Source: Schmidtea polychroa
Lineage: Eukaryota
DNA length: 60,000 nucleotides
NCBI GenBank assembly: GCA_044892525.1
Contig: CM097885.1
Location: 35,776,001-35,836,000 of the forward strand
Direction: 5' to 3'
Program-made: the position numbers and the translations under genes
Notes under the pieces: generated by a model
Told to the model about the DNA's origin: nothing
The model's database searches: none
The model's input: the letters and a program-made list of their open reading frames with translations, nothing else
Part shown: one piece after another, positions 9,061 through 45,329 of the stretch
Layout of the letters: every line of letters starts with the position of its first letter
Numbering within the stretch: position 1 is the stretch's first letter

Positions 9061-9985
9061 CCCGGCGCTAAGACCAAAAGAAAACAAATCCTAATTGGAA
9101 TGACGTTGAAAACCACAATGACGGTTTTAAAACAACAATTTATTACATAACTTCCCCCTTTAAAACAGGAGGTTAACATGGGTCAATAAAAAGTAACATA
9201 ATACAAATAACATTCAATAACGTTTTTTATTTTTCTTTGTATGTTTTTATATGTTTTTTGTTTCTGTTTTTTTCTATATATATACAACCTGGATAAAACA
9301 AAAAATTTACAACCAGTTACGTTAATACAAATATATAAATAAAACTGTACAATTAGTATTGTTTGTGCGTGTGTTTTGTTTTTTTATGTTTCTATTTTAT
9401 TTAAGGGAATCGCTGTATCGTTTTTTGTATTGGGGTGGGTAGATGTCTGACTGTTATTTTGTTCAGTATTCTGTAATCACTACAAGCTCTCCATTCGCCA
9501 TTAGCTTTTGGTTTTAGCATCAGTGCTGAAGACCATTCAGGTTTTGAATGCCTGACTATGTTGTTTTCCAATAGTTCGTTGAAAATGTATTTTGTGATTT
9601 CTATTTTTTTGGGATCCAGTGGCCTTACTTTTGCATGTACTGTATTTCCATTTGTCAGTATTGCGTGTTCGGTAGTTTGTTCTGATTTGTCGTCAAATTG
9701 GACTGGTTCCATTAGTTCTTTTTTAATTTCTGGAAATCTGCTCCTATTATTGCTTGTTGAACGTCAGCTATTGTGAATGTCCAGTTGTAGTTTTTTTTGT
9801 TTATATTCAGATTTAGTGTTTGTTGTTTTGATGCTTGTTCCGTTGGCTGCTGTTAACGGTTTATCTGCAGTTTTTGTATTTTTATACATGTAATGTGGCA
9901 GTAATGAGATCACTGAATTTATTAATTTATTATTTACCCACGAATTTTCGGCACTGCCTTTGTCAAGTGAATATTCAACAAACAT
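9061..9985 (-). mobile_element. Gypsy LTR retrotransposon remnant (protease and RT N-terminus, PPT)
   Basis: ELLENNIVRHSKPEWSSALMLKPKANGEWRACSDYRILNKIT is the Gypsy RT N-terminal motif. Degenerate protease site LDKGSAENS. Minus-strand AAAGGGGGAAG PPT near 9151-9161 precedes TGTAA. Confidence 0.85.
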
Positions 9986-10522: not shown

Positions 10523-10849
10523 GTATTATTCAATATTTAATCATCATTGTTGTACTGATAGTTGTCTATTTCCCCATAATCCCCTCCATTCCTCCCTGAG
10601 GCAATAAATGTCAATATGAATAGTAGGATGTGTGCCCCCCCATTCTGAGGAAAAAAATATTAAGATAAAATTTTGATTAATATTTTTTTGTAGATCAACT
10701 AATACTTTCATGTAGGTCAACCCAATTTCAATGATTTTCATGAAATTTCTCAAAATGTTTATGTAGGTCACTCTTATAAAAACTTGTCCCCCCCCCAGGA
10801 CAATCGATATATAGTTATATAGATTTCATAAATAAATAGATTTATAGAT

Positions 10850-11620
10850 TTAATTTATATAGATTTAATATATAAGTAAGTCATATAGATTTAATAAATA
10901 AGTAGGTCATGTAGATTTAATAAATAAGTAAGACATATTTAATAAATAAGTAGGTCATATAAATCTAATAAGTAGGTGATATAGATTTAATAAATAAGTA
11001 GGTCATGTAGATTTAATAAATAAGTAAGACATATTTAATAAATAAGTGAGTCATATAAATCTAATAAGTAGGTGATATAGATTTCATAAATAAGTAGGTC
11101 ATATAGATTTAATAAATAAGTAGGTCATGTAGATTTAATAAATAAGTAAGACATATTTAATAAATAAGTGGGTCATATAAATCTAATAAGTAGGTGATAT
11201 AGATTTCATAAATAAGTAGGTCATATAGATTTAATAAATAAGTAGGTCATGTAGATTTAATAAATAAGTAAGACATATTTAATAAATAAGTGAGTCATAT
11301 AAATCTAATAAGTAGGTGATATAGATTTCATAAATAATTAGAACATATAGATTTAATAAATAAGTAGGTCATGTAGATTTAATAAATAAGTAAGACATAT
11401 TTAATAAATAAGTGGGTCATATAAATCTAATAAGTAGGTGATATAGATTTCATAAATAAGTAGGTCATATAGATTTAATAAATAAGTAGGTCATGTAGAT
11501 TTAATAAATAAGTAAGACATATTTAATAAATAAGTGAGTCATATAAATCTAATAAGTAGGTGATATAGATTTCATAAATAAGTAGGTCATATAGATTTAA
11601 TAAATAATTAGAACATAATA
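10850..11620. repeat. Intronic minisatellite, 122-bp period built from ~22-26-bp subunits
   Basis: ATAGATTTAATAAATAA recurs in register at 10981, 11103, 11225, 11347, 11469 and 11591. Confidence 0.95.
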
Positions 11621-12213
11621 TATAGTTTCCATAAATATTCTGACATAAAATCGGTCAAAGAAGACAAATATATATTGGAGGTAGTAAAACTAGTTGTGTG
11701 TGTGTGCGTGTAATGGGCAATAAATAAGGGATAGTCAAAAACTTTTAAGACAAAAAAATTTTTTGCGAAAAATGATGTAGTTCAAATCGATTTTAAAAGC
11801 AGGGGCACGCTAACTCAACATTGATTATTGAAAGTCTCTCACTTTGTATTTCGGTTATCAGTAACTCATTTCGAAGGGTTTCTCTCAGGCTAACAATCTC
11901 TCAGCAAACCATCATATACCCAAATAAAATCACCACGCGGAAGATTTAAAACAATATATAATAATTCTGTATCATCAGAAGCAACAACGTATTGTTTGTT
12001 AATAAATGTCAACTCCATCATAGAAATTGTACATTTTCATATCTTGTAGATTCTATGGGTTCCTTTAATGTGATGTGTGCTGAGGCCCATGACATTTCCG
12101 GAATACCATAGAACAAGTATTTTTGGATTCTATTATTATACTTATATATAACAAATCATTAATGAACTTTATAAATAGAAAATATCAGTATATTATTAAA
12201 TATTTCATTTTAG

Positions 12214-13785: not shown

Positions 13786-13831
<46 letters not shown>

Positions 13832-14886
13832 CGGATATTATAACAAATATTATATCAAATATTATAACCACCCTAATAGTAACACAATTCATTAATCTAA
13901 ATTTATCAATATCTCATTGTGAGAAGCGGCATTTAATATAGCATTCAATAAAAAAGTTATTGAACACATGGGACAAGGAAACTGTTGATGAGAGTAGTTG
14001 GGAGTGGGAGATACACATCGCTTAGTTCTCACGAGTAGATTCTGGTGAATGAAATATTTCAGCTCAGAATAATGAAAATAAAGGTTACAAGGACTTTTAT
14101 ATCTGGTGGTCTTTCCTCGGCTGAGCAGAATAACAAAAGCATAATGGCACGAAATGACCTATAAACGGACCTATAATCTTGCAGTGCTGAAATCCTAGAT
14201 CCCCAATACATCTCTAGTATATATCAGAACTCCTTTGGGACAATGTGTTAACGAAACCCAAATAATAATGCACATTTTGGATTATTCATCGAATAGTCGA
14301 ACTTTCTTAAATTTTAGCAATTTAGATCGTGCGGATTAAAGAATTTCAAAACAGAATCAGATTTTATTTGCCTAAACTGTTTGAAAATATAACCGAACAG
14401 TTTTGAGTTATTTTTTAAAATTTAATTATTTTGATTTTTCTATCATTCGATTTTTAAAAAATTTTTATTTTGTATTACGCAATTTCGCCGTATGATGTTA
14501 AATACAAAAATTCTTATTTGTGTAAATTTACCAAATTATTATATATTTGTTATTATATACTATGTTAGATTATATATTTTTATTGGAAATTTTAATTTTA
14601 CCACTTTATTTAACTCTGTGTTTGCACAAATGATAAAATTAGATTTGGCATATTTAGCGTATTAAAGTTTTTAATCAGATTTGGTAGTCATAATTGAACT
14701 ATCGATTATAATTATTATTGACAATAAATGCACATATATATATATTGCATTAATTGATTTTAACCTTGATTTTAAAAATTTATTTTCAATGACGTATTTC
14801 TGATGAAATTCTGTTTTTCATTTCTTTGACATTTATATCATTGCTTGATAAGCTCAATTTTGTAAATTTCCACTCCAGATTCGGTA

Positions 14887-15279
14887 TTCATATCAAATGA
14901 GGTTAAGAAAATTCACACATGCACGCGTGAAACTAATTGTTTAAATGGAACGATTAATAGGTCTGATGACTAGCACTATATGAAAGATGGGAAATTCAAA
15001 AAATCAGTCCCCATTTTAGTATGAAAAAATTTAGAGTAATCCTGAGAATAATTATGTAAACAAAAGAAGTTGAGTATTATGGAAACATTCTAAATAATCA
15101 AAATATATTGGGTTGATCTCTGAGTTGCTATTATGTTAATAAACATCATGTGTCATACACTGAGTTGCAATTGATAAAATTAGTCTTTGATATTAGAAAC
15201 ATAATCAATAAATTATATTATAAGATACATACAAACTCGCATGTGTGCTAAAAATTCATTCATATATACCACAGTCCCT
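14887..15279 (+). repeat. Third copy of the flank segment (direct repeat of 25664-26056, inverted repeat of ~15452-15844)
   Basis: Base-by-base comparison shows 7 substitutions within 14902-15032, then identity up to ACAGTCCCT at 15279. Confidence 0.95.
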
Positions 15280-15944
15280 CAAGAGTACAAAAGGCTGGTT
15301 TTAATCTGGAAAAGTTGATCATGACGTGGTTGTTGTCAATATCGAGTTTCGCTGTATTTTTGTACAGCTTTATGATGCGAAACGGACCTTTGAATCTGGG
15401 TTTGAGGTTTGAAGAGTCGATAGTTCTCACCCATGTGTGAGTTGCGAGGAAAGGGACTGTGGTATATATGAATGAATTTTTAGCACACATGCGAGTTTGT
15501 ATGTATCTTATAATATAATTTATTGATTATGTTTCTAATATCAAAGACTAATTTTATCAATTGCAACTCAGTGTATGACACATGATGTTTATTAACATAA
15601 TAGCAACTCAGAGATCAACCCAATATATTTTGATTATTTAGAATGTTTCCATAATACTCAACTTCTTTTGTTTACATAATTATTCTCAGGATTACTCTTA
15701 ATTTTTTCATACTATAATGGGGACTGATTTTTTGAATTTCCCATCTTTCATATAGTGCTAGTTATCAGACTTATTAATCGTTCCATTTAAACAATTAGTT
15801 TCACCCGTGCAAGTGTGAATTTTCTTAAACTCATTTGATATGAAGTAGGTAGATAGTAGCTCCCCGCAGCAATGACCCCCCCCCACGGGGGGGGGGGGGG
15901 GGGTTCTGCTGCCGTAATTTTTTTGCTGCAACTTTTGATTACGC

Positions 15945-16620
15945 AATTTTTCAGACTATAGTGAGGGGGTCTCGATGGTCCTGGGATTTTCAATACAAAA
16001 AATTTTTTTCAATACAAAATCCGACTACCACTAAAAAAGCCAAGGATTATTCACACTATAGTGAGGTGGGTCTCGATGGTCCTGGGATTTTCAATACAAA
16101 TAAAATTTTTTCTATACAAAAATCCAACTACCAATAAAAAAGCATGGAATTTTCAGACTATAGTGAGGGGGTCTCGATGGTCCTGTGATTTTCAATACAA
16201 AAAATTTTTTTCTATACAAAAATTCGACTACCACTAAAAAAGCCAAGGATTTTTCAGACTATAGTGAGAGGGTCTCGATGGTCCTGGGATTTTCAATACA
16301 AATAAAATTTTTTCAATAGAAAATTCGACTATCAATAAAAAAGCATGGATTTTTCTAGTTCAATTAAGGTGGGTCTCCTTGGTCCTGAGAAAAAGGTGGT
16401 CTACACTAAAAAACGTGGTCCTGAGAATTTCAATACAAAAAGGCAGTATACACTAAAAAAGAGTGGCAATTTAAGGTCTCAGGATATTTTCAATACAAAA
16501 ATCCGACTACCACTAAAAAGCATGGATTTTTCTAGGCCAATTAATGCGGGTCTCCTTGGTCCTGAGAATTTCAATAGAAAAAGGTGGTCTACACTAAAAA
16601 AGCGTGGTAAATTTTTAAAA
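15945..16620. repeat. ~101-bp tandem repeat (mirrored at ~24890-25565)
   Basis: ACTATAGTGAG..GGTCTCGATGGTCCTG recurs near 15955, 16055, 16157 and 16258, followed by degenerate copies. Confidence 0.95.
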
Positions 16621-17620
16621 TAAAGTAAATAATGGTCCTAAAAATTAAATTACAGTAAATGATGGTCAAAATTTATGAATTACAGTAAATTATGGTCAAA
16701 ATTTTTCAAATACAGTAAAATAAGGTCCAATTTTTCAATTAAAGTAAATAATGGTCCTAAAAAATTAAAGTAAATAATGGTCCAAATTTTTGAATTAAAG
16801 TAAATTATGGTCCTAAAATTAAATTAAAGTAAATTAAGGTTCTAAAAACTTAAATTACAGTAAATTATGGTTCTTAAAAATTTAATTACAGTAAATAATG
16901 GTCCAAATTTTTGAATTAAAGTAAATTATGGTTCAAATTTTTCAATTAAAGTAATGAATGGGCTCAAATAACTAAATTAAGGTTCTAAAAAATTAAATTA
17001 AAGTAAATTAAGGTTCAAATTTTTCAATTAAAGTAAATTATGGTCCAAATTTTTGAATTACAGTAAATAATGGTCCAAATTTTTGAATTACAGTAAATAA
17101 TGGTTCTAAAAATTGAATTACAGTAAATTATGGTTCTAAAAAATTAAATTAAGGTTCTTAAAAATTAAATTACAGTAAATAATGGTCCAAATTTTTCAAT
17201 TACAGTTAATTATGGTTCTAAAAAATTAAATTAAAGTAAATTAAGGTTCAAATTTTTCAATTAAAGTAAATAATGGTCCAAATTTTTTAATTAAAGTAAA
17301 TTATGGTTCAAATTTTTAAATTAAAGTAATGAATGGGCTCAAATAACTAAATTAAGGTTCTAAAAAATTAAATTAAAGTTAATTAAGGTCCAAATTTTAA
17401 AATTAAGTAATCAATGGTCAAAAATTTTAAATTAAAGTAATGAATGGGCTCAAATAACTAAATTAAGGTTCTAAAAAATTAAATTAAAGTTAATTAAGGT
17501 CCAAATTTTAAAATTAAGTAATCAATGGTCAAAAATTTTAAATTAAAGTTAAATAAGTAAATTAAAGTAATAATTTTTAAATAAGTAATGTAATAAGTAA
17601 ATTAAAGTAAGATTTTAAAA
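16620..17620. repeat. ~29-30-bp tandem repeat array (mirrored at ~23890-24890)
   Basis: Consensus AATTA(A/C)AGTAAATTATGGT(C/T)CAAATTTTT, roughly 30 copies. Confidence 0.95.
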
Positions 17621-17869
17621 TTTATTAACAAAAAGTTGAAATAATAGAAGGTGTTTGAGAATTGAAATTTTTTAATGAAAATTTTTATGAAATAATTTTT
17701 TAAGTAATTTTTAATAGAAATTTTTATGGAATAATTTTTTAAGTTAATTTTTAATGGAAATTTTTATGAAATATTTTTCAATGATAATTTTAGATGGAAA
17801 TTTTTAAGATAATTTTTAATGAAAATTTCTATGAAATATTTTTCAAAGACAAATTTTAATAATAATTCA

Positions 17870-18900
17870 ACAACAAACCAACAACTTAGTACCAACAACC
17901 AGTAACTTATGAACATGTATTAACAATCAGATACCTACAACTAGTTACTAACAACCTGCTACCAAGTACTTACAATCAGTTACCTGCTACCAAATACTTT
18001 CAACATGATACCACGTACTAAATAACTCTCAAACAACCAGATACTTACAACCAATTACCAGATACCAAGTACCTACAACTAGTTACTAACAACTAGTTAC
18101 CTGATACTAAGTACCTACAACCATCTAACAAGTACTTACAACCAAAAACAAGCAACCAACTAGGTACCAAGTACTAACAACCGACAACAACCAGCTAACA
18201 ACTAACTACAACCTACCAAGTACCTACAACTAGATACTAACAACTAGTTACCAGATACCAACTACTCACAGACGTCAACAACCAGGTACTAAGCATTATT
18301 AACCAACTACTAAGTACCAACAACAACTAACTACCAACTACTAAGTACCTACAACCACCTACCTATTAACTAGCTACAACCACCTACTAACTAGCTACCA
18401 CCTACCCATTAACTAGTTACAACCAGCTAACTAGGTACTAGATACCAAGTACTAACAACCAGTTACCTGCTACTAAGTACCAACAACCACCTACCAAGTA
18501 CATACAACCAACATCAACCAGGTACTAAGCATTAATTACCAACTACTAAGTACCTACAATCACCTACCCATTAACTAGTTACTAAGTACTATCAACCAAC
18601 TAGGTACTAGATACCAAGTACTAACAACCAACAACAACCAGGTACTAATCATTAATTACCAATTACTAAGTACCTACAACCATCTACCAAGTACATACAA
18701 CCAAGTACTAAGCATTATTAACCAACTACTAAGTACCTACAACCGACTAGCTACCACCTACCAAGTACCACCAACAACGAGATACCTACAACTAGATACT
18801 AACAACTAGTTACCAGATACCTACTACTCACAGCCGTCAACAACCAGGTACTAAGCATCATCAACCAAGTAATAACAACTAGATACCTAGTACTTACGAC
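17870..18900. repeat. Strand-asymmetric C/A-rich degenerate repeat (mirrored at ~22610-23645)
   Basis: Shuffled units ACTAAGTACCTACAACC, CCAAGTAC and AACTAG. Confidence 0.9.
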
Positions 18901-19395
18901 CAGATGACCACATGAAATTATTGGTTAAATAAGTAAATTAATGTCTAATTTTTAAATTAAGTAATCAATGGTCTAAAATATTAAAGTTAAAGTTAATTTA
19001 AGATGAAGATTTTCTGGGATTTCCAATGTTAATTTTAGATGCAAATCTTCGTCAATTAATCAATGACCACATGAAATTATTAGTTAAATATGAAAATAAG
19101 GGTTATAATTAGTTGTTTAGTAAATTATGGTGTAAAATTAAGAAATAAAGAATAATTAGGTAAATTAAGGATAAATTAAGGAAAATTAAGGTTCAAAATT
19201 TAAAATTAAGTAACCAATGGTTCAAATTTTAAATTAAAGCTAAATAAGTAAATTAAAGTAAGATTTTTAAATTTATTATCAAAAGATTGAATAACCACCA
19301 ACTTTTTTGAGAAATGTAATTTTTAATGAAAATTTAAATGGAAATTTTTTTTAAGTTAATTTTAAATGTAAAATTTTTTAATGGAAATTTTAATG

Positions 19396-19480
<85 letters not shown>

Positions 19481-21412
19481 TCAACAGTTCCCAACAATCG
19501 GTTACTAAATATTTTTAACTAGATGCTAACAAATACTTTGAACATGATACCACGTACTAACTAACTCTCAAACAACCAGATACCTACAACTAGTTACTAA
19601 CAACCAACTAAGTATTCTTTATTGTATTTTATGAAATGTTTTTAAATTAATTTTTTATCTGTCTTTAAAAATATGTTTAATTACAATCAATCGAAAACCT
19701 TTTCAAAATGTCTAAATTTAACAAACATGTTGACTTTCATCAAAAAACCACAACTCAATCACTTTAAAACACCACGTGAAATTCAAAATAATTTAAATTA
19801 CAATGAAATACTAATGAATTCTAATTTACAAAAACATCTTCTTTTAAATGATAACTTATTATTGCATCGTAAAATCACATTCAATAAATACTTATTGTTG
19901 ATCAGTTTTATTATATATACTCTGAGTTTATCCGACAGGATGTTTTGACCCCCTAAGGGTACAGGTCGTAAGGGTACTGGTCGTAAGGGTATTAGTCGTA
20001 AAGGTACTAGTCGTAAGGATATTGCTAACTCTCAACCCCCACCTACCCATTAACTAGCTACTAAGTACTAACAACCAGTTACCTGATACCAAGTACATAC
20101 AACCAACATCAACCTGTTACTAAGCATTATCAACCTACAACTATATAAATATGGATAAATTTAATCTTTCTATGCAACTACTCAGTTATATTGTACAGTC
20201 AAATTTCAAGCAATATTTATTTTTAATTTCGAGTACAGTGATTAACAAAAATTTAATTATAACCGGTTTTATCATTAGATTTTATAAATTATTTAGAGTT
20301 AATGATTTTACCTGTTTTATAGGGAAATATTTGTGATAATACGAATTAAAGTTAGAATTATAGTCATTTAAAGGGGATTTTAAGGAATCTTATTAGTCTG
20401 AGGTAAATATATAACCTTTTAAGGATATTTATCGATAAAATACTAATCTTTAAAGATAGAGTTATTTTTGGGAAATTTGATGCTTTTTAGATGATTTTAT
20501 TGAATTATTTGTAATAATATTGATTAAGGGTAGAAATATAGTCTTTTAAGGGATTTTAAGGAATCTTGTTAGTTTGAGGTGAATATATGATATTTAACAA
20601 GTACTTATCGATAAGATACTAATCTTTAAAAATAGAGATATTTCAGGCGAAATGATTCTTTTTAGATGATTTTATTAGAGAATTCGCTTGAATATACCAA
20701 TTATTGTCATTTGAATGAATTTTCTGGTTTGTTAGTTTTCTAGTCTCTTTTGGAATTTAATGATAATTATTTTTATTGTAGATTGATGACATTGATAATT
20801 TTAATGAATTTATACTGATTTTTGAATATTTTGAGCATTCAGTCAATCAATTTGAGTACATGTATTATTTTTAAAAAAAAATAATTAAAATTAATTTTAT
20901 TTCAATTAATTTATTCAATCTAAATCAATTATCTACTAAATCTTATCTTATTAATTTATTATCTTAGTTGATTCAACTTGAATGATCAGTATTTTTTTAT
21001 TTACTGGATGATTAATGAATAGAATTCTTTCTTGTCTATTAATTAAATTTTTATGATATTTATTTTGAGTAAATTTAAATTTTTGCAATTATTTAATCAA
21101 TTTTTACCAAGTTATTGATGTCTTGAGTTCAATTAATTTTCCATCTAATTTTTCAAGTGATGAGTATTTTTCTTTTAAAGATCAATTTGTTAGTACATAG
21201 TTGTTGGTTGTAGGTAGTTGGTTGTTAGTACTTGGTAGTTGGTAGTTGGTATCTGATTGACTTTTTAGATTTTGATAAAAAGATAGTGTATGTGATGAAG
21301 AATATTTTGTATTTAATTGCTATTATTTTTATGTGTGGTTAGTTGATTGTTGGTATCTAGTTGTTGGTATCTTGTATTTAATAGTTGGTAGAGTGTTGTT
21401 TACTGATTGTTG

Positions 21413-22082
21413 TTATATAGTTGTAGGTTGATAATGCTTAGTAACAGGTTGATGTTGGTTGTATGTACTTGGTATCAGGTAACTGGTTGTTAGTACTTAG
21501 TAGCTAGTTAATGGGTAGGTGGGGGTTGAGAGTTAGCAATATCCTTACGACTAGTACCTTTACGACTAATACCCTTACGACCAGTACCCTTTTTGGACCA
21601 TTATTTACTTTAATTTTTTAGTACCTGTTATTTATTTGGACCATTATTTACTTTAATTTTTTAGTACCTGTTATTTATTGAATGTGATTTTTACTTTGCA
21701 ATAATAAGTTATCATTTAAAAGAAGATGTTTTTGTAAATTAGAATTCATTAGTATTTCATTGTAATTTAAATTATTTTGAATTTCACGTGGTGTTTTAAA
21801 GTGATTGAGTTGTGGTTTTTTGATGAAAGTCAACATGTTTGTTAAATTTAGACATTTTGAAAAGGTTTTCTATTGATTGTAATTAAACATATTTTTAAAG
21901 ACAGATAAAAAATTAATTTAAAAACATTTCATAAAATACAATAAAGAATACTTAGTTGGTTGTTAGTAACTAGTTGTAGGTATCTGGTTGTTTGAGAGTT
22001 AGTTAGTACGTGGTATCATGTTCAAAGTATTTGTTAGCATCTAGTTAAAAATATTTAGTAACCGATTGTTGGGAACTGTTGA

Positions 22083-22116
<34 letters not shown>

Positions 22117-25100
22117 CATTAAAATTTCCATTAAAAAATTTTACATTTAAAATTAACTTAAAAAAAATTTCCATTTAAATTTTCATTAAAAATTACATTT
22201 CTCAAAAAAGTTGGTGGTTATTCAATCTTTTGATAATAAATTTAAAAATCTTACTATAATTTACTTATTTAGCTTTAATTTAAAATTTGAACCATTGGTT
22301 ACTTAATTTTAAATTTTGAACCTTAATTTTCCTTAATTTATCCTTAATTTACCTAATTATTCTTTATTTCTTAATTTTACACCATAATTTACTAAACAAC
22401 TAATTATAACCCTTATTTTCATATTTAACTAATAATTTCATGTGGTCATTGATTAATTGACGAAGATTTGCATCTAAAATTAACATTGGAAATCCCAGAA
22501 AATCTTCATCTTAAATTAACTTTAACTTTAATATTTTAGACCATTGATTACTTAATTTAAAAATTAGACATTAATTTACTTATTTAACCAATAATTTCAT
22601 GTGGTCATCTGGTCGTAAGTACTAGGTATCTAGTTGTTATTACTTGGTTGATGATGCTTAGTACCTGGTTGTTGACGGCTGTGAGTAGTAGGTATCTGGT
22701 AACTAGTTGTTAGTATCTAGTTGTAGGTATCTCGTTGTTGGTGGTACTTGGTAGGTGGTAGCTAGTCGGTTGTAGGTACTTAGTAGTTGGTTAATAATGC
22801 TTAGTACTTGGTTGTATGTACTTGGTAGATGGTTGTAGGTACTTAGTAATTGGTAATTAATGATTAGTACCTGGTTGTTGTTGGTTGTTAGTACTTGGTA
22901 TCTAGTACCTAGTTGGTTGATAGTACTTAGTAACTAGTTAATGGGTAGGTGATTGTAGGTACTTAGTAGTTGGTAATTAATGCTTAGTACCTGGTTGATG
23001 TTGGTTGTATGTACTTGGTAGGTGGTTGTTGGTACTTAGTAGCAGGTAACTGGTTGTTAGTACTTGGTATCTAGTACCTAGTTAGCTGGTTGTAACTAGT
23101 TAATGGGTAGGTGGTAGCTAGTTAGTAGGTGGTTGTAGCTAGTTAATAGGTAGGTGGTTGTAGGTACTTAGTAGTTGGTAGTTAGTTGTTGTTGGTACTT
23201 AGTAGTTGGTTAATAATGCTTAGTACCTGGTTGTTGACGTCTGTGAGTAGTTGGTATCTGGTAACTAGTTGTTAGTATCTAGTTGTAGGTACTTGGTAGG
23301 TTGTAGTTAGTTGTTAGCTGGTTGTTGTCGGTTGTTAGTACTTGGTACCTAGTTGGTTGCTTGTTTTTGGTTGTAAGTACTTGTTAGATGGTTGTAGGTA
23401 CTTAGTATCAGGTAACTAGTTGTTAGTAACTAGTTGTAGGTACTTGGTATCTGGTAATTGGTTGTAAGTATCTGGTTGTTTGAGAGTTATTTAGTACGTG
23501 GTATCATGTTGAAAGTATTTGGTAGCAGGTAACTGATTGTAAGTACTTGGTAGCAGGTTGTTAGTAACTAGTTGTAGGTATCTGATTGTTAATACATGTT
23601 CATAAGTTACTGGTTGTTGGTACTAAGTTGTTGGTTTGTTGTTGAATTATTATTAAAATTTGTCTTTGAAAAATATTTCATAGAAATTTTCATTAAAAAT
23701 TATCTTAAAAATTTCCATCTAAAATTATCATTGAAAAATATTTCATAAAAATTTCCATTAAAAATTAACTTAAAAAATTATTCCATAAAAATTTCTATTA
23801 AAAATTACTTAAAAAATTATTTCATAAAAATTTTCATTAAAAAATTTCAATTCTCAAACACCTTCTATTATTTCAACTTTTTGTTAATAAATTTTAAAAT
23901 CTTACTTTAATTTACTTATTACATTACTTATTTAAAAATTATTACTTTAATTTACTTATTTAACTTTAATTTAAAATTTTTGACCATTGATTACTTAATT
24001 TTAAAATTTGGACCTTAATTAACTTTAATTTAATTTTTTAGAACCTTAATTTAGTTATTTGAGCCCATTCATTACTTTAATTTAAAATTTTTGACCATTG
24101 ATTACTTAATTTTAAAATTTGGACCTTAATTAACTTTAATTTAATTTTTTAGAACCTTAATTTAGTTATTTGAGCCCATTCATTACTTTAATTTAAAAAT
24201 TTGAACCATAATTTACTTTAATTAAAAAATTTGGACCATTATTTACTTTAATTGAAAAATTTGAACCTTAATTTACTTTAATTTAATTTTTTAGAACCAT
24301 AATTAACTGTAATTGAAAAATTTGGACCATTATTTACTGTAATTTAATTTTTAAGAACCTTAATTTAATTTTTTAGAACCATAATTTACTGTAATTCAAT
24401 TTTTAGAACCATTATTTACTGTAATTCAAAAATTTGGACCATTATTTACTGTAATTCAAAAATTTGGACCATAATTTACTTTAATTGAAAAATTTGAACC
24501 TTAATTTACTTTAATTTAATTTTTTAGAACCTTAATTTAGTTATTTGAGCCCATTCATTACTTTAATTGAAAAATTTGAACCATAATTTACTTTAATTCA
24601 AAAATTTGGACCATTATTTACTGTAATTAAATTTTTAAGAACCATAATTTACTGTAATTTAAGTTTTTAGAACCTTAATTTACTTTAATTTAATTTTAGG
24701 ACCATAATTTACTTTAATTCAAAAATTTGGACCATTATTTACTTTAATTTTTTAGGACCATTATTTACTTTAATTGAAAAATTGGACCTTATTTTACTGT
24801 ATTTGAAAAATTTTGACCATAATTTACTGTAATTCATAAATTTTGACCATCATTTACTGTAATTTAATTTTTAGGACCATTATTTACTTTATTTTAAAAA
24901 TTTACCACGCTTTTTTAGTGTAGACCACCTTTTTCTATTGAAATTCTCAGGACCAAGGAGACCCGCATTAATTGGCCTAGAAAAATCCATGCTTTTTAGT
25001 GGTAGTCGGATTTTTGTATTGAAAATATCCTGAGACCTTAAATTGCCACTCTTTTTTAGTGTATACTGCCTTTTTGTATTGAAATTCTCAGGACCACGTT

Positions 25101-26229
25101 TTTTAGTGTAGACCACCTTTTTCTCAGGACCAAGGAGACCCACCTTAATTGAACTAGAAAAATCCATGCTTTTTTATTGATAGTCGAATTTTCTATTGAA
25201 AAAATTTTATTTGTATTGAAAATCCCAGGACCATCGAGACCCTCTCACTATAGTCTGAAAAATCCTTGGCTTTTTTAGTGGTAGTCGAATTTTTGTATAG
25301 AAAAAAATTTTTTGTATTGAAAATCACAGGACCATCGAGACCCCCTCACTATAGTCTGAAAATTCCATGCTTTTTTATTGGTAGTTGGATTTTTGTATAG
25401 AAAAAATTTTATTTGTATTGAAAATCCCAGGACCATCGAGACCCACCTCACTATAGTGTGAATAATCCTTGGCTTTTTTAGTGGTAGTCGGATTTTGTAT
25501 TGAAAAAAATTTTTTGTATTGAAAATCCCAGGACCATCGAGACCCCCTCACTATAGTCTGAAAAATTGCGTAATCAAAAGTTGCAGCAAAAAAATTACGG
25601 CAGCAGAACCCCCCCCCCCCCGTGGGGGGGGGTCATTGCTGCGGGGAGCTACTATCTACCTACTTCATATCAAATGAGTTTAAGAAAATTCACACTTGCA
25701 CGGGTGAAACTAATTGTTTAAATGGAACGATTAATAAGTCTGATAACTAGCACTATATGAAAGATGGGAAATTCAAAAAATCAGTCCCCATTATAGTATG
25801 AAAAAATTAAGAGTAATCCTGAGAATAATTATGTAAACAAAAGAAGTTGAGTATTATGGAAACATTCTAAATAATCAAAATATATTGGGTTGATCTCTGA
25901 GTTGCTATTATGTTAATAAACATCATGTGTCATACACTGAGTTGCAATTGATAAAATTAGTCTTTGATATTAGAAACATAATCAATAAATTATATTATAA
26001 GATACATACAAACTCGCATGTGTGCTAAAAATTCATTCATATATACCACAGTCCCTTTCCTCGCAACTCACACATGGGTGAGAACTATCGACTCTTCAAA
26101 CCTCAAACCCAGATTCAAAGGTCCGTTTCGCATCATAAAGCTGTACAAAAATACAGCGAAACTCGATATTGACAACAACCACGTCATGATCAACTTTTCC
26201 AGATTAAAACCAGCCTTTTGTACTCTTGA
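21413..26229. repeat. Right arm of giant inverted repeat
   Basis: Reverse complement of 15279-20148. It differs by a shorter (ATT)n tract, G/C-run lengths, a few substitutions near the centre and a replaced ~85-bp segment at 21591-21677. Confidence 0.97.
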
Positions 26230-26875
26230 ATACGACGAAATCCCAAACAACCATATCACAAAAGACTATAACATAAACGAAGACATATTAGAAGACATGG
26301 AACAACCTACAACACTAGCAGACACACCAAATATTTAACTCCTTCAAAACAATCCGTCATTAGCCTCCAGGCGAACACGTAAACTCCCTCAATACCTCTC
26401 GAATTATGATATTCAGGGACTGCTTCCACCATTATCGTTGTCTTTATCTTTTGATACGCTCCGCGTACTTCGGCGGGGACTTTGTAGTGCCTCTGACTAG
26501 CACTTTTATCAATTTAATAATTGAATTAAAAATATATTATTAAATTAATTAAATTAAAATAAAATTAAAATGATTGTTTAAATAATCCTGTCTTTTTCCA
26601 AATAAATCATCAAATTCAATTTAAAAAGAAACAATGAATTAATTAACTTCGCAATAATCAAATCGAGTCAAAATCAATAAATCAAATATGCCAGAAATTC
26701 AAGAACCAGAAACGTTCGTCTTATTAGCAATGACCTCTATTATGATTGTCAAGATCTTCAACAATCTCCATGTAATCTCCAGATCAAGTGTTCGTGTTTT
26801 CGTCGGTATAAACTTTTATTGATTAACACAATTGAATATCAATATAAAGTTAAATAAATAATTAAATATTACAAC
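26056..26875 (+). mobile_element. Gypsy 3' remnant: integrase C-terminal GPF/Y domain, PPT-like tract and probable LTR
   Basis: LKPRFKGPFRIIKLYKNTAKLDIDNNHVMINFSRLKPAF. GGCGGGGA followed by TGTAGTG at ~26483; candidate end TTACAACA near 26875. Confidence 0.7.
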
Positions 26876-27726: not shown

Positions 27727-28408
27727 TGTTGGGCTAGAACTTATTTTTAAACCCAAACTTAGGAATGGGACGAAATTTGCATACCCAGCATTAAGTTTAC
27801 TTAAATAAATATATCTAAAAACACCAAGTAAACAATGATAATAGAGAGATAATTCACCTAAAAATAAAACATCTGAACTAAAAATAAAACACGAGCAAGA
27901 AGTGTTACACGAAAACTTACTCAAATATAACTGAAAGACATAAAACAACAAAAACAAATTCGAATTAAGGCGATTAGAAAAAATTTTAAAAAAAATTAAA
28001 GAAAATCTCCATAAAATCTTACGTAAAGAAAATATTATCAAAATTTTGAATAAAAATCCAGGACAATTCATTAAAATGGCGAAATCCATCATGAACGCCA
28101 AACGAACCAATTGAATTTATAAAAAATAAATATTTAAGTTTAAAATATAAAAAGTTTAGAAAAGAAATCATAAAAAAACAATTTAAAAATAAGAAATAGA
28201 TTAAATTTAGCATGGAATCTTTTGGAAATGCTGAAATCCATCAAGGAGGCAAATTTAATAAAAAATAATTCAAAAATAAAAACAAAAATTCTTACTGAAA
28301 AATCGCCATCAAAATCGATAAAAATTAAAAATCGAATGTTCGAGAATTAAAATAATCAAAATTTGTTTTACTGCATCAATGCACGCATGTATACTTACAC
28401 ACCAAACA
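27727..28408. mobile_element. Solo-LTR-like repeat (related copy at 43158-43901)
   Basis: TGTTGG...CCAAACA ends. Shares GAAATCCATCATG, GGAGGCAAATTTAATAAAAAATAATT and TTTGTTTTACTG...ATGCACGCA in the same order with 43158-43901. Confidence 0.65.
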
Positions 28409-29279
28409 GCGGCTATATAAACTAACATATTTCGTCACTTTTCAATGCTTACTCTTACGCCAAATTTTTGATTTTTCTGAGATTGTAAGTAAGGACGATT
28501 TCATTGTGAATTATAAATTATTATTATTGAAACCTTGTTTTCATTATTTCTATTTAACTATAGAAATGTAGGTTTGAGTGAGATAGTCGGTTATCATTGA
28601 TTTTGAAGCGAGATCCCAGCCAACCTTGCACCTATGCACTCTATCATTGATGGGCACACACTGCCTGACACGCACTTATCAATATTATAACTTCTTTTTG
28701 TTGTTCGTCAGCGGAGGTTGCACCATTTCATGGTTCTGTCATGGAGTTGAGTCGATAAACTCCCTCCGTTTGACTATATTTAAATATTATCCGTCAGCAG
28801 TACATTGTTGACTATACTTAAAAGTAAGGCTTGCCGTAGCGGACACAGTGTGGCCGTGTAAACAAGCAATCTTCCCGACATTCTATACATGAATAACTTA
28901 TATAGTTAAAATCTAAAAACAAAATCATCACAATACAATACACTAAGGTTAATAAACGGAGTAGATCTCAGACCTAAACTAATCACAAGAATGCAATTCA
29001 TGATTAATGTAGACGGTTATCCATAACCTAATAAGTAATGAACTCTACCTACACGTACGTCGAACCTAAAGTCCTAAATAACCTATTAAATAATAGTGCA
29101 AAGGAAAGATTTTTCCATATGATGTTATTAATGGTAATAGTATTCATAAAGGCATTCGACATACGTATCGGTAAGACTTAACTTATAAGTTGAATAGGCA
29201 ATTGAATTAACTATATGAAGTATAAATCTGATTTCATAAAAATATAATTTATAAGTAGCATGATAGCATAGATCATAAA

Positions 29280-30990
29280 TTTAACTCCCTAAAAATATAA
29301 ATTGTGAACCTATACTGATATAAATTACAACTCTAAAATAGTTTTATATAAATTATAAACTTATACTGATCATAAAGATATCAATTATAAATCCAAAATA
29401 GTTATATATAAATCATAAACTTGTACTGATTATATGAATATAAATTACACGTCCAAAATAGTTATATATAAATTATAAATTTGTACTGACTATAAAAGTA
29501 TAGATTATAAATTTAAAATATAAATTATAGGTTCATGTTGACTACAGAAGCATAAATTACAAATCTAAATGAGTTATAAAAATATATATTATAATTTCGA
29601 AGTGTGAGTTTGCTTTCATAGAATATAAGTCATGATTAGTTGTAAAAGAATAAATTACAAATTAATTTCATAAAATATAATTAGGAACTTATATTACCCC
29701 TAAATTATAAATTATAACTTAGAACTATCTATAAAAACATAAATTATAAGTTTATATTATCCCTACAAAATATAAACTTGAAACTTTGATTATCTATAAA
29801 AATATAAATTATAATTAGTTATAAAAGTATAAATTTAATTTCATAAAAAATATGAATAAGCTATAAAAGTATAAATTACGAACTTGATTTCATGAAAATA
29901 TAAATTATAATTAGTTATAAAAGTATAAAGTATAAATTTAACTTCATAAAAATATAAATTTTAAATTTATATTAGCTGTAAGAGTATAAATTATAATCTT
30001 AATTTGGTCATAAAAGTATAAAATATAAACTACGTTAGCGATAAAAATATAATCTATATATAATAATTTGTAAATATTTTATAAACAACCCCCCCCCCCA
30101 AGTTACGTATCGTCGAAACAAATGTTCAGATTCATAATCTAACTTATATATGTATATTTGAAACTTATAAAAGTATAACTTACATAACCCCCCTCAAACT
30201 ATATACATTAATCGAGAACAATATATAACATATTAACATATATATTAACATATATATGTACAGTTATCAAATTTAATAACCCCTCAGATCACATAACCAT
30301 TAATTATTATCTAAATGCATTTACATGTATATTTAACTTACATTACCTTTACACTATAAATTTAGAAATTTTTTCATAAATAACCCTCTTAATTCCTATA
30401 ACCATTAACCGCTACCTAAAAGCATTAATTTAGACTATTTTATATATATACTTAACTTAGATTACCTTTAAAATTATAATTGAAAATTTTTCATAAATGA
30501 CCCCCTCAAATCATATAGTCATTAATTATTACCCAAAAGTACTAATTTAGCTTATTTTCAGATATATTTAATTTAGATCACCGGTAAAATTATAGTGGAA
30601 AATCTTTCATCAAAGACCCCCCATAAACCATATAGTCATCAACTACAACCTAAATATACTAAATTAGCTTATCTTAATATACATTTAACTTATATTATAT
30701 TTAAAAATATAAATTGTAAATTTTCATAAATGACCCCCTCAGACCATATAGTCATTAAGGATTACCCAAAAGTACTAATTTAATTTGTTTTCAGATATAT
30801 TTAACTTATATTACCTTTAAAAATATAACTTGTATTTTTCGTAACCGACATCCTCAAATCATGTTGCCGTTAGCTATTCCTTAGGTAAAATGAATTAGAT
30901 CATATTCATATAGAGTTAAATCATACTTCATGTAAAAATATAATTTCATAATTTTTCGTAAATGACCCGCCCCCAAGCTGTATACATGTG
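29280..30990. repeat. Degenerate tandem arrays of ~60-bp (29290-29560), ~30-bp and ~116-bp (30265-30990) units
   Basis: AAAATAGTTATATATAAAT-like units at 60-bp spacing. AAATGACCCCCTC-like motif near 30380, 30496, 30612, 30728, 30844 and 30960. Confidence 0.85.
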
Positions 30991-32119: not shown

Positions 32120-32784
32120 GATACACAGAAAGAAATAAAGATGAGAGATGCGATGAGCGTCGACGAAATAAAAGGAGTGATAAAGAAGGTCGATGATATA
32201 AACATTGAAGTATCCGGAATTTCTGTTTTAAATAGAAGAATGAAATGTTTGCGAGTATTGTCAAGGCAGGAAAAGGATTTGCATAGAACCAAAGCAAACA
32301 TTTTTCAAATTCACAACGGAGTGAACAAAGATATGATCCAACACCGAGGATGAAAGCTGAAAGATCAGTTATTACATGTTGGAATTGTCAGGAGGTGGGT
32401 CATATGAGTCGAAAATGTCGGGAACCAAGGGTTCAGAAATGCTTCCAATGTGGAAAAGAAGGGCACCAATCCAGAGAGTGCAATCAGAGAGCACAGAATG
32501 CAGAGATGAGATGTTTTGCGTGTAAAGATATTGGACACAACAGAAGAGAATGCCCATCAATATCGTGCTCAGGATGCGGTAGAAGAGGTCACTTACGATT
32601 TCAATGCTGGAATCAGGCAGACAGAAGAAGATACGCAGACGAGCGTGGACCACCGAGACAGACGCAAGTAGCCGCGTTTCAGACTGATCAAGCCGAGAAC
32701 GACGAAAAGATCTCATGTCAAGATGAAGACTACCCAAACCAAGAAGCTCCATCGTTAGGCGAGATGATCGGAGCAATGAATTAA
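32120..32784 (+). pseudogene. Retrotransposon gag C-terminus with four CCHC zinc knuckles
   Basis: CWNCQEVGHMSRKC, CFQCGKEGHQSREC, CFACKDIGHNRREC and CSGCGRRGHLRFQC. PBS-like TGGCAAC at 32072; frame break near 32350. Confidence 0.9.
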
Positions 32785-33189
32785 TGGGTAATAATGACGA
32801 TTGTGCATGCCAGTATAATTGTATAAGTAGATATAAATATATTAATAGTATTAGTAGTAAAGTGAATAGTATAATTCCTTTTGTAAATAATGTATATAAT
32901 ATAGAAAATATTAATAATAATGTGAATAGTATAAATCCTTTCGTAGATAATTTAAATAAAGTAAATAATAAAATGTTGGATGAGAATAATGTAATTAGAA
33001 ATAATTGTAGCAGTAGAATTGTAGGAAATATCGATATAGTTGAAAAAATAATGAACTGGAAACAAATTTTAAAAAAGCGAATCAATGTGAAATAATAGAA
33101 AATGTAAAAACTAAAAAGTCGGTAAAAAATAAAGTTACGGATATTCATGATGTAATTATTTTAAATATGCCGAATGTGCAAAAATTGAT

Positions 33190-33864
33190 CATTACACTAA
33201 ATACATATTTCTAACTTCTATTAGAAAGCAAGATGAAAATACAATAAAGCCAGTTTTGTTAAATAATTGGATATTGAAATTTGGAGCCCCTAAGGAACTA
33301 CGTGTTGATTGTGAAAAGAATTTCGAAGCAAATAGTATTAAAGAACTAGCAAAGGCAGCAGGAATTGAGTTGATATTTTCGAGTCCGTATCATCATAATA
33401 CTAATGGTGTAATTGAAAGACGATTTCGTACTATAAGAGACTATATTAACGCGTCACTCAGAGAAGGAGTTAAAAAAAGCTGGGCAGAAGTAATACCTGA
33501 TATAGAATACGTGTTAAATGCAACAGCTCAGAAAATTACTGGAGTGAGTCCAGCAGAAATTATATTTGGGAAAAAGATTAATAGATCGCAATGGCATAGT
33601 AATAATGAAGTGGATAGAAATGAAATCATGCGGAAATTAGAGGCTAAAAGACAGCAAGCGAAATAAATTGGCACAACTAAGAACTTAGAAGTGGGGTCAA
33701 AGTATTGGTGAAACAAGAAATTAGAAACAAAGATCACGAGAGATATGAAGGACCATACACAGTAATAAAACGAAATCATGAAAGAAGTTACTTATTAACA
33801 GACGAAAACGGGAGAAAAATAACGAGGAATATAGAAAAGTTAAAGCATTTTAAAGAAGGGGGGA
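33190..33864 (+). pseudogene. Truncated Gypsy integrase ending in a PPT
   Basis: KFGAPKELRVD...FSSPYHHNTNGVIERRFRTI and a frameshifted YEGPY motif. PPT AAAGAAGGGGGGA at 33852-33864. Confidence 0.9.
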
Positions 33865-34144
33865 TGTAAGGAGTTAGTAAACCCCTATATAAAATTATTA
33901 TGGTTAAATGGTAGAAGGGAGATCAGTTAGTAGAAATAATTATTACTGTTAAATTTTTATATATTAAATTATATCATATTATATTAAATTATATTAAATT
34001 AAATCAATTAAATGTATGACCCGTAATTACATTAATATTAATAATTATCACGCCTCGGTGTTTAAATACGCTAGTAAACGAAGTTTTGAAGTTGATATAA
34101 AAAATAAATGCTTGAAGAAGATTTGAATTTAATTGCGTCTAACA
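33865..34144 (+). repeat. LTR-like segment between PPT and PBS
   Basis: Starts TGTAA directly after the PPT and ends TAACA directly before TTGGCAATGACC. Confidence 0.7.
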
Positions 34145-34166
34145 TTGGCAATGACCTCTACTAAAC

Positions 34167-35294
34167 ATGGATTACAATGGCAAAAAAGGTAATGAAGAGA
34201 TAGAACATATGAGAAAAGCAATAGATAAACATGAGACTACGAGATTTAAAATCAACGAAGATTTAATTTTAACAAGAGAAAATAAAATTTGGATCCCAAA
34301 AGAAAATAAAATAGAATTTGTCAAAGACATGTACAAAATGCTGTGTCACGCTGGATGTAAGAAGGTAATCGATTATATAAAAGTTAATTACGATATGGAG
34401 GAATTAAATACAATCGCGAATCAATATATACAAAGTTGTGAAATATGTCAGAAACGAAAAACAGTGACAACAAAAACAAAAGAACTAATTGTAAAAACAC
34501 AAGTGGCGGAACCGTTTGAGGTTATAGCGATAGATTTTTGTGGACCTTTGCAGGCAAACATTCATGGAAAGAAATATATTCTGGGAATTATAGATGTGTG
34601 TAGTCGATACATTTTATTGACAGCAGTAGCAAAGGAGGACGAAAAAACTACAGCGAATACTATTGTGAAATTCTGGATATTAAAATACGGGGTACCGAGA
34701 ATTATTTATGTTGATTGTGGAAAAACATTCGAATCTAACTTGATAAAAGAGTTGGCTAAGAATCACAATATACAGCTACAATTTTCTAGCCCTTATCATC
34801 ATAACACTTATGGTTTGATTGAAAGACAATTTCGAACAATACGAGATTTTATCAGTACATCATTAAGAGATAAAGTTAAGAGAAATTTGGTTGAAGTGTT
34901 ACCTGAAATTGAGTTTACTTTAAATGCTACTATCCAAAGCACAACTGGAAAGAGTCCATCAGAAGCAGTATTTGGTTTTCGGATATCTAGAAAATGGAAC
35001 AATAATAAAAGAATATACAACGATAGAAGTAAAATAGTGGAGGAAGTGCAATCAAAACAACGAAATTTAAATTATAAAAATGAGAACCGGATACACCAAG
35101 AATTCGATATAAATGAAAAAGTTTTAGTTAGAGTAGATTTAAGAAAGAAAGAAGACCGATATACAGGATTTTTTGTCGTTGTTAGAAAGATCCATGCAAA
35201 TAGTTATAAATTACGAGACAGAGATGGAAAAATTATAGTTCGCAACGTTGAATGGTTAAAACCTTTTAAACAGGGAGATGTTAGGGATATTTAA
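34167..35294 (+). CDS. Uninterrupted 375-aa Gypsy-type integrase with no RT, RNase H or protease
   Basis: Zinc-binding region (CHAG...CEIC), catalytic core AIDFCGP / YVDCGKTF / GLIERQFRT, and C-terminal RYTGFF...RNVEWLKPF. Confidence 0.9.
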   Translation: MDYNGKKGNEEIEHMRKAIDKHETTRFKINEDLILTRENKIWIPKENKIEFVKDMYKMLCHAGCKKVIDYIKVNYDMEELNTIANQYIQSCEICQKRKTVTTKTKELIVKTQVAEPFEVIAIDFCGPLQANIHGKKYILGIIDVCSRYILLTAVAKEDEKTTANTIVKFWILKYGVPRIIYVDCGKTFESNLIKELAKNHNIQLQFSSPYHHNTYGLIERQFRTIRDFISTSLRDKVKRNLVEVLPEIEFTLNATIQSTTGKSPSEAVFGFRISRKWNNNKRIYNDRSKIVEEVQSKQRNLNYKNENRIHQEFDINEKVLVRVDLRKKEDRYTGFFVVVRKIHANSYKLRDRDGKIIVRNVEWLKPFKQGDVRDI

Positions 35295-43157: not shown

Positions 43158-43901
43158 TGTTAGGCAAAAACTGACTTTAGGTGGAGGCATAAGCAACGTG
43201 ACGAAATGCGTCGGAATATAACACGCAAACATAACATCAAGTCGAGTCAAATTCAAACAGCCTCAAACAACAACTAAATAATTAAACAGAATTCACTTAA
43301 CACCAAAATAATAAACCCAAAAGTAAAACTAATATGAAACAAAAACAAGAAGTAACACATTAAATGAACTCCAACACGACATAGATACATACCAGAAGTA
43401 AGCAAATTTGAATTACTGTCGACAAGTAGATGTAGGAATGGAAATTAGAAAGATTTCCACAAAATAACATAAAAAATGAATTAAAGATAAAATAAGAATA
43501 AAATAGATAAAAAAGATAAAATAAACAGAAAAACTAGAATATCCCGTAAAAATGTAGAAATCCATCATGGCCGCCAAGTAATTTAGCAAAGTTAACTAAA
43601 AAATAAACATTTATTAATTAAATTAGCAAAAAGCAAAAGGAAATAACATAAGAATAACAAGAAAATGAGAATTATAAATTAAAATATCTGAAACAACATA
43701 GAATATTCTGGAAAACGCCCATATTCATCCTGGAGGCAAATTTAATAAAAAATAATTAAAATATAAAATTTAAAAAAAAATTAATCATAATTTATAAGAA
43801 ATCACCATCAACATTGACAAAAATTAGAATTCAAAATTATATAGAATTCAAATAATTTTGTTTTACTGAATAAATGCACGCACACAAACTCGCACACCAA
43901 A
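43158..43901. mobile_element. Solo-LTR-like repeat, diverged relative of 27727-28408
   Basis: Starts TGTTAGGC; shares colinear blocks with 27727-28408. Confidence 0.6.
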
Positions 43902-43905
43902 ATTA

Positions 43906-44121
<216 letters not shown>

Positions 44122-45329
44122 TTCAGTCACAAAACACATGATATTATACCAACAATGTTGTCAGGAAATTGACAAGTATGGGTAACTTTTATTTATGTGT
44201 CATTTCATGAATTGTTACTTATTATGGTATTTTGAGAATATAGGGTTGAGCATAATCATTGTTTTGGTTTTCAATTTTTTTTGAACAAGCGAAATTGTTT
44301 TCAACACTAAATTACTTATTTTTCAGACCCACAGCCAACCACTTATATAAGTTAATAAAATGAATACCAACCAGGAATGATAGTTGTACTGTGACGTGTA
44401 TACGGAGCAATTTTACCAACCTGTTTATTAGGAACTTCTTGGTGAAATGTGTGGATAATGATCAGCATTGACCTTGTCTACATGTGGTGTCAATGTAAAT
44501 AATTAAATCGACCGAGACCATGTCAAACATTTAGTTCGTGCGTAGCTCCAAGGTCTTGACATAACACTAAGAGTTTAACGTATCCGAGTCCAGTGGACCG
44601 GTGCGATGGACAATTTTATTAACTAATGCAACAGACTCATAGCGCATAACGACCTCACACCAAAATCACATTTAAATACAATAATAATAAGACACTAAGT
44701 GTTCGCTTCTCAAACGTCCAGTGGGCTGAGAGAAAGAGCATTCTAACAAAAATTAACGCAAAATCATCACCACATACAATGAAGATTAGAATTGTTTCAA
44801 CATTAATGAATAATTGCAGATTATCATGCTTTAATAAACAAAAATAATGACAGATCCCTATCAAAAATCTTTAAACCCTCAATTTTAACTTTGATTTTGC
44901 GACATGTGTTCAGGAAATAAGAACGGAACTAGATAGACTAGAGAGCTTCCGACAATTTGGGAAGGAGGAACACAAGTCGAATATGCGGTGGAAACCTTAA
45001 ATAGTTTACCGATAACAAAAGCAGTATTTACGGGAACAATACAGGATTCTTAAGGTATTTCCTTACAATTTCGCCAAAAGCCTTGAAGTTCTGCAAGAGA
45101 CTAGAGAGCTTCCAACAATTTGGGAAGGAGGGACACAAGTCGAATATGATAAAGCAGTCAACATATAGTCCAAAACCGGATGTGAAGCACTTTTTGGTTA
45201 CATGATGGTATATCTGAAATTGGGCATATATCTGTTGACAGATTACTTTCAACAATTCAAAAGGAAAATATTAGCACATAATAGATTGGAACCATTGTAT
45301 TTTTTTCGAAATTCCAATAATGTTGTAGG

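Follow-up and report, generated by a model that had tools for sequence, protein, structure and literature searches.

A probable inverted triplication of less than a kilobase beside a gene-less foldback element of Polinton type

We analysed a stretch of 60,000 nucleotides of Schmidtea polychroa DNA (hereafter the window), AT-rich and eukaryotic in character, in which a gene-less foldback element of Polinton type is accompanied by three copies of one flanking segment, the middle copy being inverted. The arrangement is probably a real inverted triplication of less than a kilobase, seeded by the arms of the element and completed on a template that lacked it; its junction is known here from the assembled sequence. 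We tentatively prefer, with confidence somewhat short of even, a young and one-off rearrangement in an animal that was heterozygous for the insertion, in which the final step took place on the empty allele of the homologue and not on a paralogue.

The order along the window, obtained by comparison of the assembled sequence with itself, is X-A1-B'A2-element-A3-B-C, i.e. X-A-B'A'-element-A-B-C (Table 1). It comprises an inverted repeat of 393 bp (14887-15279 and 15452-15844; 98% identity, loop of 172 bp) and a mirror pair formed by 15279-15899 and 25609-26229. The insert made up of B'A' and the element (10,385 bp) is flanked by the direct repeats of 392 bp, and the resulting copy numbers are two for B, three for A and one for the element (2-3-1). 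The inverted copy A2 and the original A3 are equal at all 393 sites compared and B' and B at all 173, which amounts to zero differences in 565 bp. The first copy, A1, differs from the other two at 7 of the 393 sites (14902, 14919, 14926, 14960, 14968, 15016 and 15032) and by no indels; its local divergence is thus 4.8% over 145 bp, followed by 0 in 247. The seven sites are more clustered than expected under a uniform distribution (p = 0.001, one-sided), and a substitution-free gap of at least 247 bp anywhere in the segment is likewise rare (p = 0.007; 200,000 draws). The first-pass annotation of this DNA had described the three copies of A with a mirrored B, the 393-bp stem with its 172-bp loop, and the seven differing sites followed by some 247 identical base pairs, and we recovered all of these with one correction: the first base of its 'A' belongs to the terminal AG...CT of the element, which leaves 392 bp for A and 15844-25664 for the element.

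Table 1. Features of the rearranged region, in window positions
Feature	Positions	Strand	Remarks
X, unique left flank	13830..14887	.	direct join to A1, no element sequence; no second copy in window
A1, first A copy, 392 bp	14888..15279	+	direct repeat of A3
Seven substitutions private to A1	14902..15032	+	within opening 145 bp; 247 identical bp after
Junction A1/B', derived	15279..15279	.	1 bp microhomology
B', B in inverted orientation, 173 bp with the shared base	15279..15451	-	identical to 26057-26229
A2, inverted copy of A	15452..15843	-	identical to A3
Left arm (TIR)	15844..19870	+	AG terminus intact and Polinton-like; tandem arrays of 101-bp and 30-bp units; C9/G17 hairpin
Core, 1.8 kb	19871..21690	.	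inner 179-bp inverted repeat; no ORF of at least 100 aa inside
Right arm (TIR)	21691..25664	-	differs from left arm in G-run, AAT run and 4 substitutions
A3, original right flank	25665..26056	+	recognisable retrotransposon integrase in last ~20 bp only
B	26057..26229	+	integrase C-terminal (SH3-like) part of 5'-truncated Ty3/gypsy remnant
C (start)	26230..26482	+	same retrotransposon frame as B continues; purine-rich tract 26472-26482 at its end

The join between X and A1 is an uninterrupted insertion site (an 'empty-site' copy) without any remnant of the element, because A1 starts with the six bases that follow directly after the element's right end. No direct repeat was found around this copy of the element at offsets of -3 to +3, the left flank having been replaced by the mirror, and the long duplication of 392 bp stands in for a short target site duplication (TSD). 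The absence of a short TSD, which the earlier annotation had attributed to the rearrangement, is indeed explained by the topology of the inverted triplication.

The element itself (9.8 kb, gene-less, arms of about 4 kb) has both ends intact, and the mirror passes its end without a seam. After the one-base shift of the boundary the mirrored ends begin with AGTAGG, a short tandem-like terminus; AG...CT termini are the rule for Polintons. The search for genes inside the element yielded a single ORF of 100 aa without a Pfam match, and genes for pPolB and integrase are absent, which makes it at most a non-autonomous derivative of the Polinton/Maverick group. A motif built from the element's end gave no matches in metagenome contigs or in viral contigs. 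The arms differ in the length of a G-run (17 on the left, 13 on the right), in an AAT run (28 and 11 units) and by four substitutions, all of which lie at or inside 19256 or the mirror position on the right arm. No substitution has accumulated in the 3,977 bp that the outer arm and the flank, including B'A', make up together (at most 0.075% per site, as an upper bound), which means that the event is young or that the copies were homogenised recently. Both isolated substitutions fall within the inner 611 of the 4,023 bp of arm (p = 0.023, post hoc), a clustering that is too weak for placing a template switch.

Several smaller repeats were seen within the element. A C9-AC-G13/17 hairpin lies near each end (15868-15910 and 25598-25640), the length of its G-run varying between the arms. 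Two tandem units of 43 bp occupy the border of core and right arm (21592-21679), each with 30-31 bp identical to the 30-bp satellite of the arm (16757-16787 and its mirror), i.e. a templated patch inside the element. The core further contains a perfect inner inverted repeat of 179 bp (19970-20148 and 21413-21591), separated from the arms by unrelated spacers of about 100 bp. Outside the element, 5042-5142 matches its 13-bp array (17673-17773 and mirror) at 77% and is possibly an older fragment of a related element.

We then considered which of the joins in the flank is original, using the retrotransposon remnant that runs through it. The ORF in B gave a weak match to SH3_Tf2-1; an initial homologue search with this ORF retained none of 77 candidates, and the frame of B has ten relatives at E-values up to 0.001, with an integrase core in three of the six that were scanned. 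The homology to integrase spans the B/C boundary (to 26239 in relative P0001 and to 26287 in relative P0003) and reaches about 20 bp back into A when the frame is read with an X residue at one break. Because the retrotransposon homology crosses both A/B and B/C on the right, these are the native joins and A1/B' is the derived one. The purine-rich tract at the end of C is followed at 26483 by TGTAG, and by the usual features of the family we take the two to be a PPT and an LTR-like start.

On the left side the same approach was less informative. Against a profile of 121 proteins, A1 scored 26.6 (shuffle mean 25.5; control A3+B 147.9) and the proximal 438 bp of X showed no integrase homology (24.1; mean of 40 shuffles 25.4). 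Of the ten stop-free pieces of A, five were compared with Pfam and none gave a match; overall the comparison covered 9 of 22 stop-free pieces, again with no match. The idea that X and A form one continuous decayed integrase, suggested by a weak single-sequence match in X (39, against 26-31 in six shuffles), failed with the 121-protein profile. Protein homology, as far as these comparisons indicate, does not establish colinearity of X and A, or X as the original neighbour of A. An exact look-up of the ORF products (the junction-spanning and the normal one) found neither of the two in the protein collection, and it is uninformative on the junction because the normal product is absent as well.

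Other remnants were noted throughout the window. A decayed frame at 45000-46336 has one relative, a 1,227-aa protein that carries an endonuclease VII domain, and gave no Pfam match to a polymerase; a motif in this frame is presumably that of a family-B DNA polymerase, and the frame possibly a Polinton remnant. LTR-retrotransposon remnants (32287-35294) comprise a zinc-knuckle gag and two integrase frames, a reverse-transcriptase fragment on the minus strand (9401-9763) is matched by relative P0002, and hAT-like transposase remnants occur at 177-683, 2290-2634 and 55709-57585, two of them with a match to the C-terminal dimerisation domain. AT-rich tandem arrays (10749-11738 and 29318-30968, with units of 122 bp and 117 bp) each lie near a C8-11 run and are possibly further ends of foldback-like elements. 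Finally, a dispersed repeat of about 370 bp, 70% identical, is found at 28073-28419 and 43549-43914.

The sequence itself shows what was produced, that the element's ends are intact, which join is derived, that X meets A1 at an empty site and that divergence changes in a step; the timing and the enzymes in the following scheme are a reconstruction. At the left arm or within it, a break or a stalled fork would have produced a free 3' end. The 4-kb arms would then have formed a panhandle in which this 3' end was extended, first along the right arm and thereafter along the right flank, by which A and B (565 nt, seen in the product) would have been added to the left end. The extended end would have been joined, with an overlap of 1 bp, to the end of an A in opposite orientation, a junction that is seen and whose chemistry could have been end-joining or a brief fold-back. 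The chromosome would finally have been completed on its homologue, the allele of which would have lacked the element and differed by the seven substitutions. The homologue as final template is a single assumption that explains both the empty X/A1 join and the seven substitutions. Precedents exist in the available text of the papers concerned for rearrangements of which the first junction lies in a pair of inverted repeats and the other has 0-4 bp of microhomology (PMC10766186, Table 1; PMC11293582), for a SNP ratio of 2:1 when a homologue takes part (PMC10766186), and for fold-back priming in single-stranded DNA by widely spaced inverted repeats (PMC10164571).

One step of this scheme is shared by every natural model, namely pairing of the right arm with a 3' end that lies within the left arm or at it, followed by synthesis through 565 nt of flank; the natural models part over the origin of X-A1. 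The first-pass annotation had likewise proposed synthesis primed in the TIR that ran 565 bp past the element's end, and this part of its reading is supported. It had added a fold-back and noted 1 bp of microhomology at 15279. That overlap is indeed 1 bp, but it carries no signal, as 1 bp or more is also found in 48% of 100,000 inverted joins drawn at random within the right flank: the microhomology at A1/B' is at chance level and no sign of pairing. Inverted pairs of 8 bp near the junction are equally unremarkable (3 observed, 1.5 expected as the mean of 300 shuffles, p = 0.2), and end-joining fits the junction equally well. At human fold-back junctions the homology was 2-8 bp long and the spacers measured 766 bp to 70 kb, so that a self-primed hairpin at 15279 is less attractive than end-joining.

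Several observations count against completion on the homologue. The pattern of 7 differences in 145 bp and then none in 247 is unlikely under evenly spread allele differences (p between 0.001 and 0.007), so that an additional homologous switch, gene conversion or uneven polymorphism is needed in this model. A local difference of 4.8% between alleles is high, the junction lacks a pairing signal where human fold-back junctions have 2-8 bp (in the portion of PMC3907307 available), and the outer-arm G-run (17 and 13) is explained by a fresh copy only via slippage or consensus error.

The strongest competitor, although a rather doubtful one, begins with integration and not with repair. A Polinton integrase would have joined the right end only; the free left 3' end would have paired with the right arm and copied A and B, and recombination or joining with the A of the same target molecule would have left a target duplication of 392 bp where 6 bp would be expected. 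The empty X/A join is explained in this way without a homologue, and so is the perfectly intact left end. Half-integrated proviruses provide a parallel, in which host or viral DNA close by is used for priming by the free 3' end, and recombination then leaves duplications of the flank that are hundreds to thousands of bp long (PMC5041404, in part), and Polintons have the retroviral-like integrase and a proposed racket-like intermediate (PMC4196379, in part). But A1 and A3 should then be identical, and the seven substitutions call for a second, independent event on the left side alone, which must moreover fit into the short time indicated by 0 substitutions in 3,977 bp. This event would be a crossover or conversion with the empty allele, or bleeding of that allele into the consensus. 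For a later crossover within the 247 bp the chance is at most a few tenths, under assumed rates of 2e-8 crossovers and 3e-9 mutations per bp per generation. Allele bleed from the other haplotype is a live alternative for the divergence step, since the last variant in A1 lies 145 bp from the unique DNA of X, about one short read, and this position fits the integration model. A direct precedent for one-ended integration of a Polinton was not found in the literature searched, which covered few subscription papers.

An unlikely explanation is an artefact of library or assembly, in which an inverted chimera (from whole-genome amplification, or from fold-back reads at the giant palindrome) and an empty haplotype were collapsed into one consensus. 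Amplification produces inverted chimeras that reach long-read assemblies and are a source of false palindromes (PMC6218980, in the part available), and the mirrored 565 bp are 100% identical here. We compared the left stretch with public runs by means of 164 sampled words, and seven runs from two studies had shares of 0.83-0.84 (four runs), 0.54 (two) and 0.20 (one); these shares are not resolved by position, and the run at 0.20 counts as no evidence. The best runs are near the 0.88 expected if the X/A, variant and junction words were missing, but with shares that lack position resolution, and with contigs of this type dropping rare or bubble alleles, a real structure fits too. The artefact would furthermore need two chimeric jumps, including one to the other haplotype. 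The arms are not pure mirrors (AAT runs of 28 and 11 units, four substitutions), and the differences in A1 are substitutions without indels; both count against an artefact.

Still less probable, in our view quite improbable, is a final switch into an A at another locus (a segmental duplicate or a repeat copy), with loss of the original left flank; the junction would then join two loci through a deletion, inversion or translocation. This resolution in a paralogous A was the one proposed in the first-pass annotation. Ectopic recombination usually leaves a chimeric repeat in which identity changes in a step, and this was counted in its favour, as were the 4.8% divergence over 145 bp, which suits a recent duplicate, and the richness of the window in mobile remnants. 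But the 60-kb window holds no other A or X, most of A is unrecognisable as a mobile-element gene by the profile and Pfam comparisons given above, and the start of A1 at precisely the insertion point is explained more simply by an empty allele of the same locus than by a paralogue.

Three further candidates were rejected or disfavoured. Error-prone repair synthesis as a source of the seven substitutions would have to reach 4.8%, far above the rates of MMBIR; single-crossover integration of an inverted circle into the homologue is disfavoured, as it leads to the expectation of leftover allele differences in A3 and B, which show none in 565 bp; and in alternative transposition through hybrid elements or composite insertion (Ac/Ds type) new target junctions form at the element ends together with a new TSD, whereas the sole new junction here is 565 bp from the element's end and X/A1 is without element sequence. 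Maize composite insertions reportedly have element ends at the target junctions, unlike the present case.

The structure is a single, unreplicated event in repeat-rich junk DNA and therefore of modest weight; alone it changes little. It has the look of a small, single repair accident, such as are known from human and yeast chromosomes. If it is real, giant foldback elements rearrange their own neighbourhood, and the frequency of a mirrored flank with a long duplication, relative to that of a short TSD, among copies would provide a handle on Polinton-type integration. It is possible, if doubtful, that we see the fossil of a half-finished Polinton integration in which the integrase joined one end and panhandle self-priming on the element's own TIR rescued the other. 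That the TIRs grew in this manner by 565 bp of host DNA and a target duplication of 392 bp was left behind is to be regarded with the same reserve. Were the half-integration true, the long-proposed racket intermediate would act on chromosome-attached elements, and giant foldback Polintons could take up host flank into their arms, with inverted triplications arising locally.

With the Polinton/Maverick elements the present element shares long TIRs and short, tandem-repeat-like AG...CT termini. It has no genes and its TIRs of about 4 kb exceed the 100-1,500 bp given, along with TSDs of 5-8 bp, in the available part of bioRxiv 2023.08.22.554363. For Polintons, 6-bp TSDs, long TIRs, terminal tandem repeats of 1-3 bp, a retroviral-like integrase and a proposed racket-shaped single-stranded intermediate have been described (PMC4196379), and the mechanism of their excision was called unknown (PMC2836005), both as far as these texts were available. 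Polintons or Mavericks with a mirrored flank or a one-ended insertion were not found in the literature searched, which covered few subscription papers.

Aberrant one-ended retroviral integration (PMC5041404, in the available part) is comparable in having one normal junction of element and host and another end that is extended by nearby templated sequence, and in a long flank duplication that replaces the short TSD, here seen as a clean right end and direct repeats of 392 bp. It differs in that our terminal repeats are inverted and not direct, which makes the appended flank inverted, that the free end is untruncated, and that the duplicated flank copies, expected to be identical at birth, differ by seven substitutions, which could be secondary. 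Fold-back inverted duplications share the inverted copy that is separated from its partner by a spacer, but in the human set (PMC3907307, as available) this spacer is 766 bp to 70 kb, against 172 bp here, and the microhomology 2-8 bp, against 1 bp; moreover, there is no terminal deletion here and the spacer B is present twice. The ODIRA inverted triplication (PMC10766186, in part) has the same order of segments and a 2:1 SNP ratio upon integration with a homologue; its inverted repeats of 5-6 bp at 40-80 nt contrast with our 1 bp and spacer of 172 nt.

The likeness to DUP-TRP/INV-DUP rearrangements, raised in the earlier annotation, holds for the topology and not for the copy numbers. Viewed from C, the segments run B', A', element, A, B, A', X'; this corresponds to conformer 3, with inversion of both the triplication and the initial duplication (PMC11293582, available part). 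The profile 1-2-3-2-1 is incomplete here: DNA that lies between the inverted repeats is expected in two copies and the element is present once, the final duplication being missing (2-3-1 and not 2-3-2), which would follow if the third A came from an element-free template. Of the two junctions of such rearrangements, the first, in a long and near-identical pair of inverted repeats, may have its counterpart in the arms, where the mirror is seamless across the element end and a switch inside the arm is indistinguishable from priming at the very end of the element; the second, blunt or with short microhomology, corresponds to our 1-bp junction. DUP-TRP/INV-DUP events measure kilobases to megabases, whereas the present one is sub-kilobase and its inverted repeats are the TIRs of a transposon. 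With a triplicated segment of which the middle copy is inverted (A1 +, A2 -, A3 +), the structure is a small-scale version of the inverted triplications that underlie human genomic disorders, here probably seeded by the transposon's own arms.
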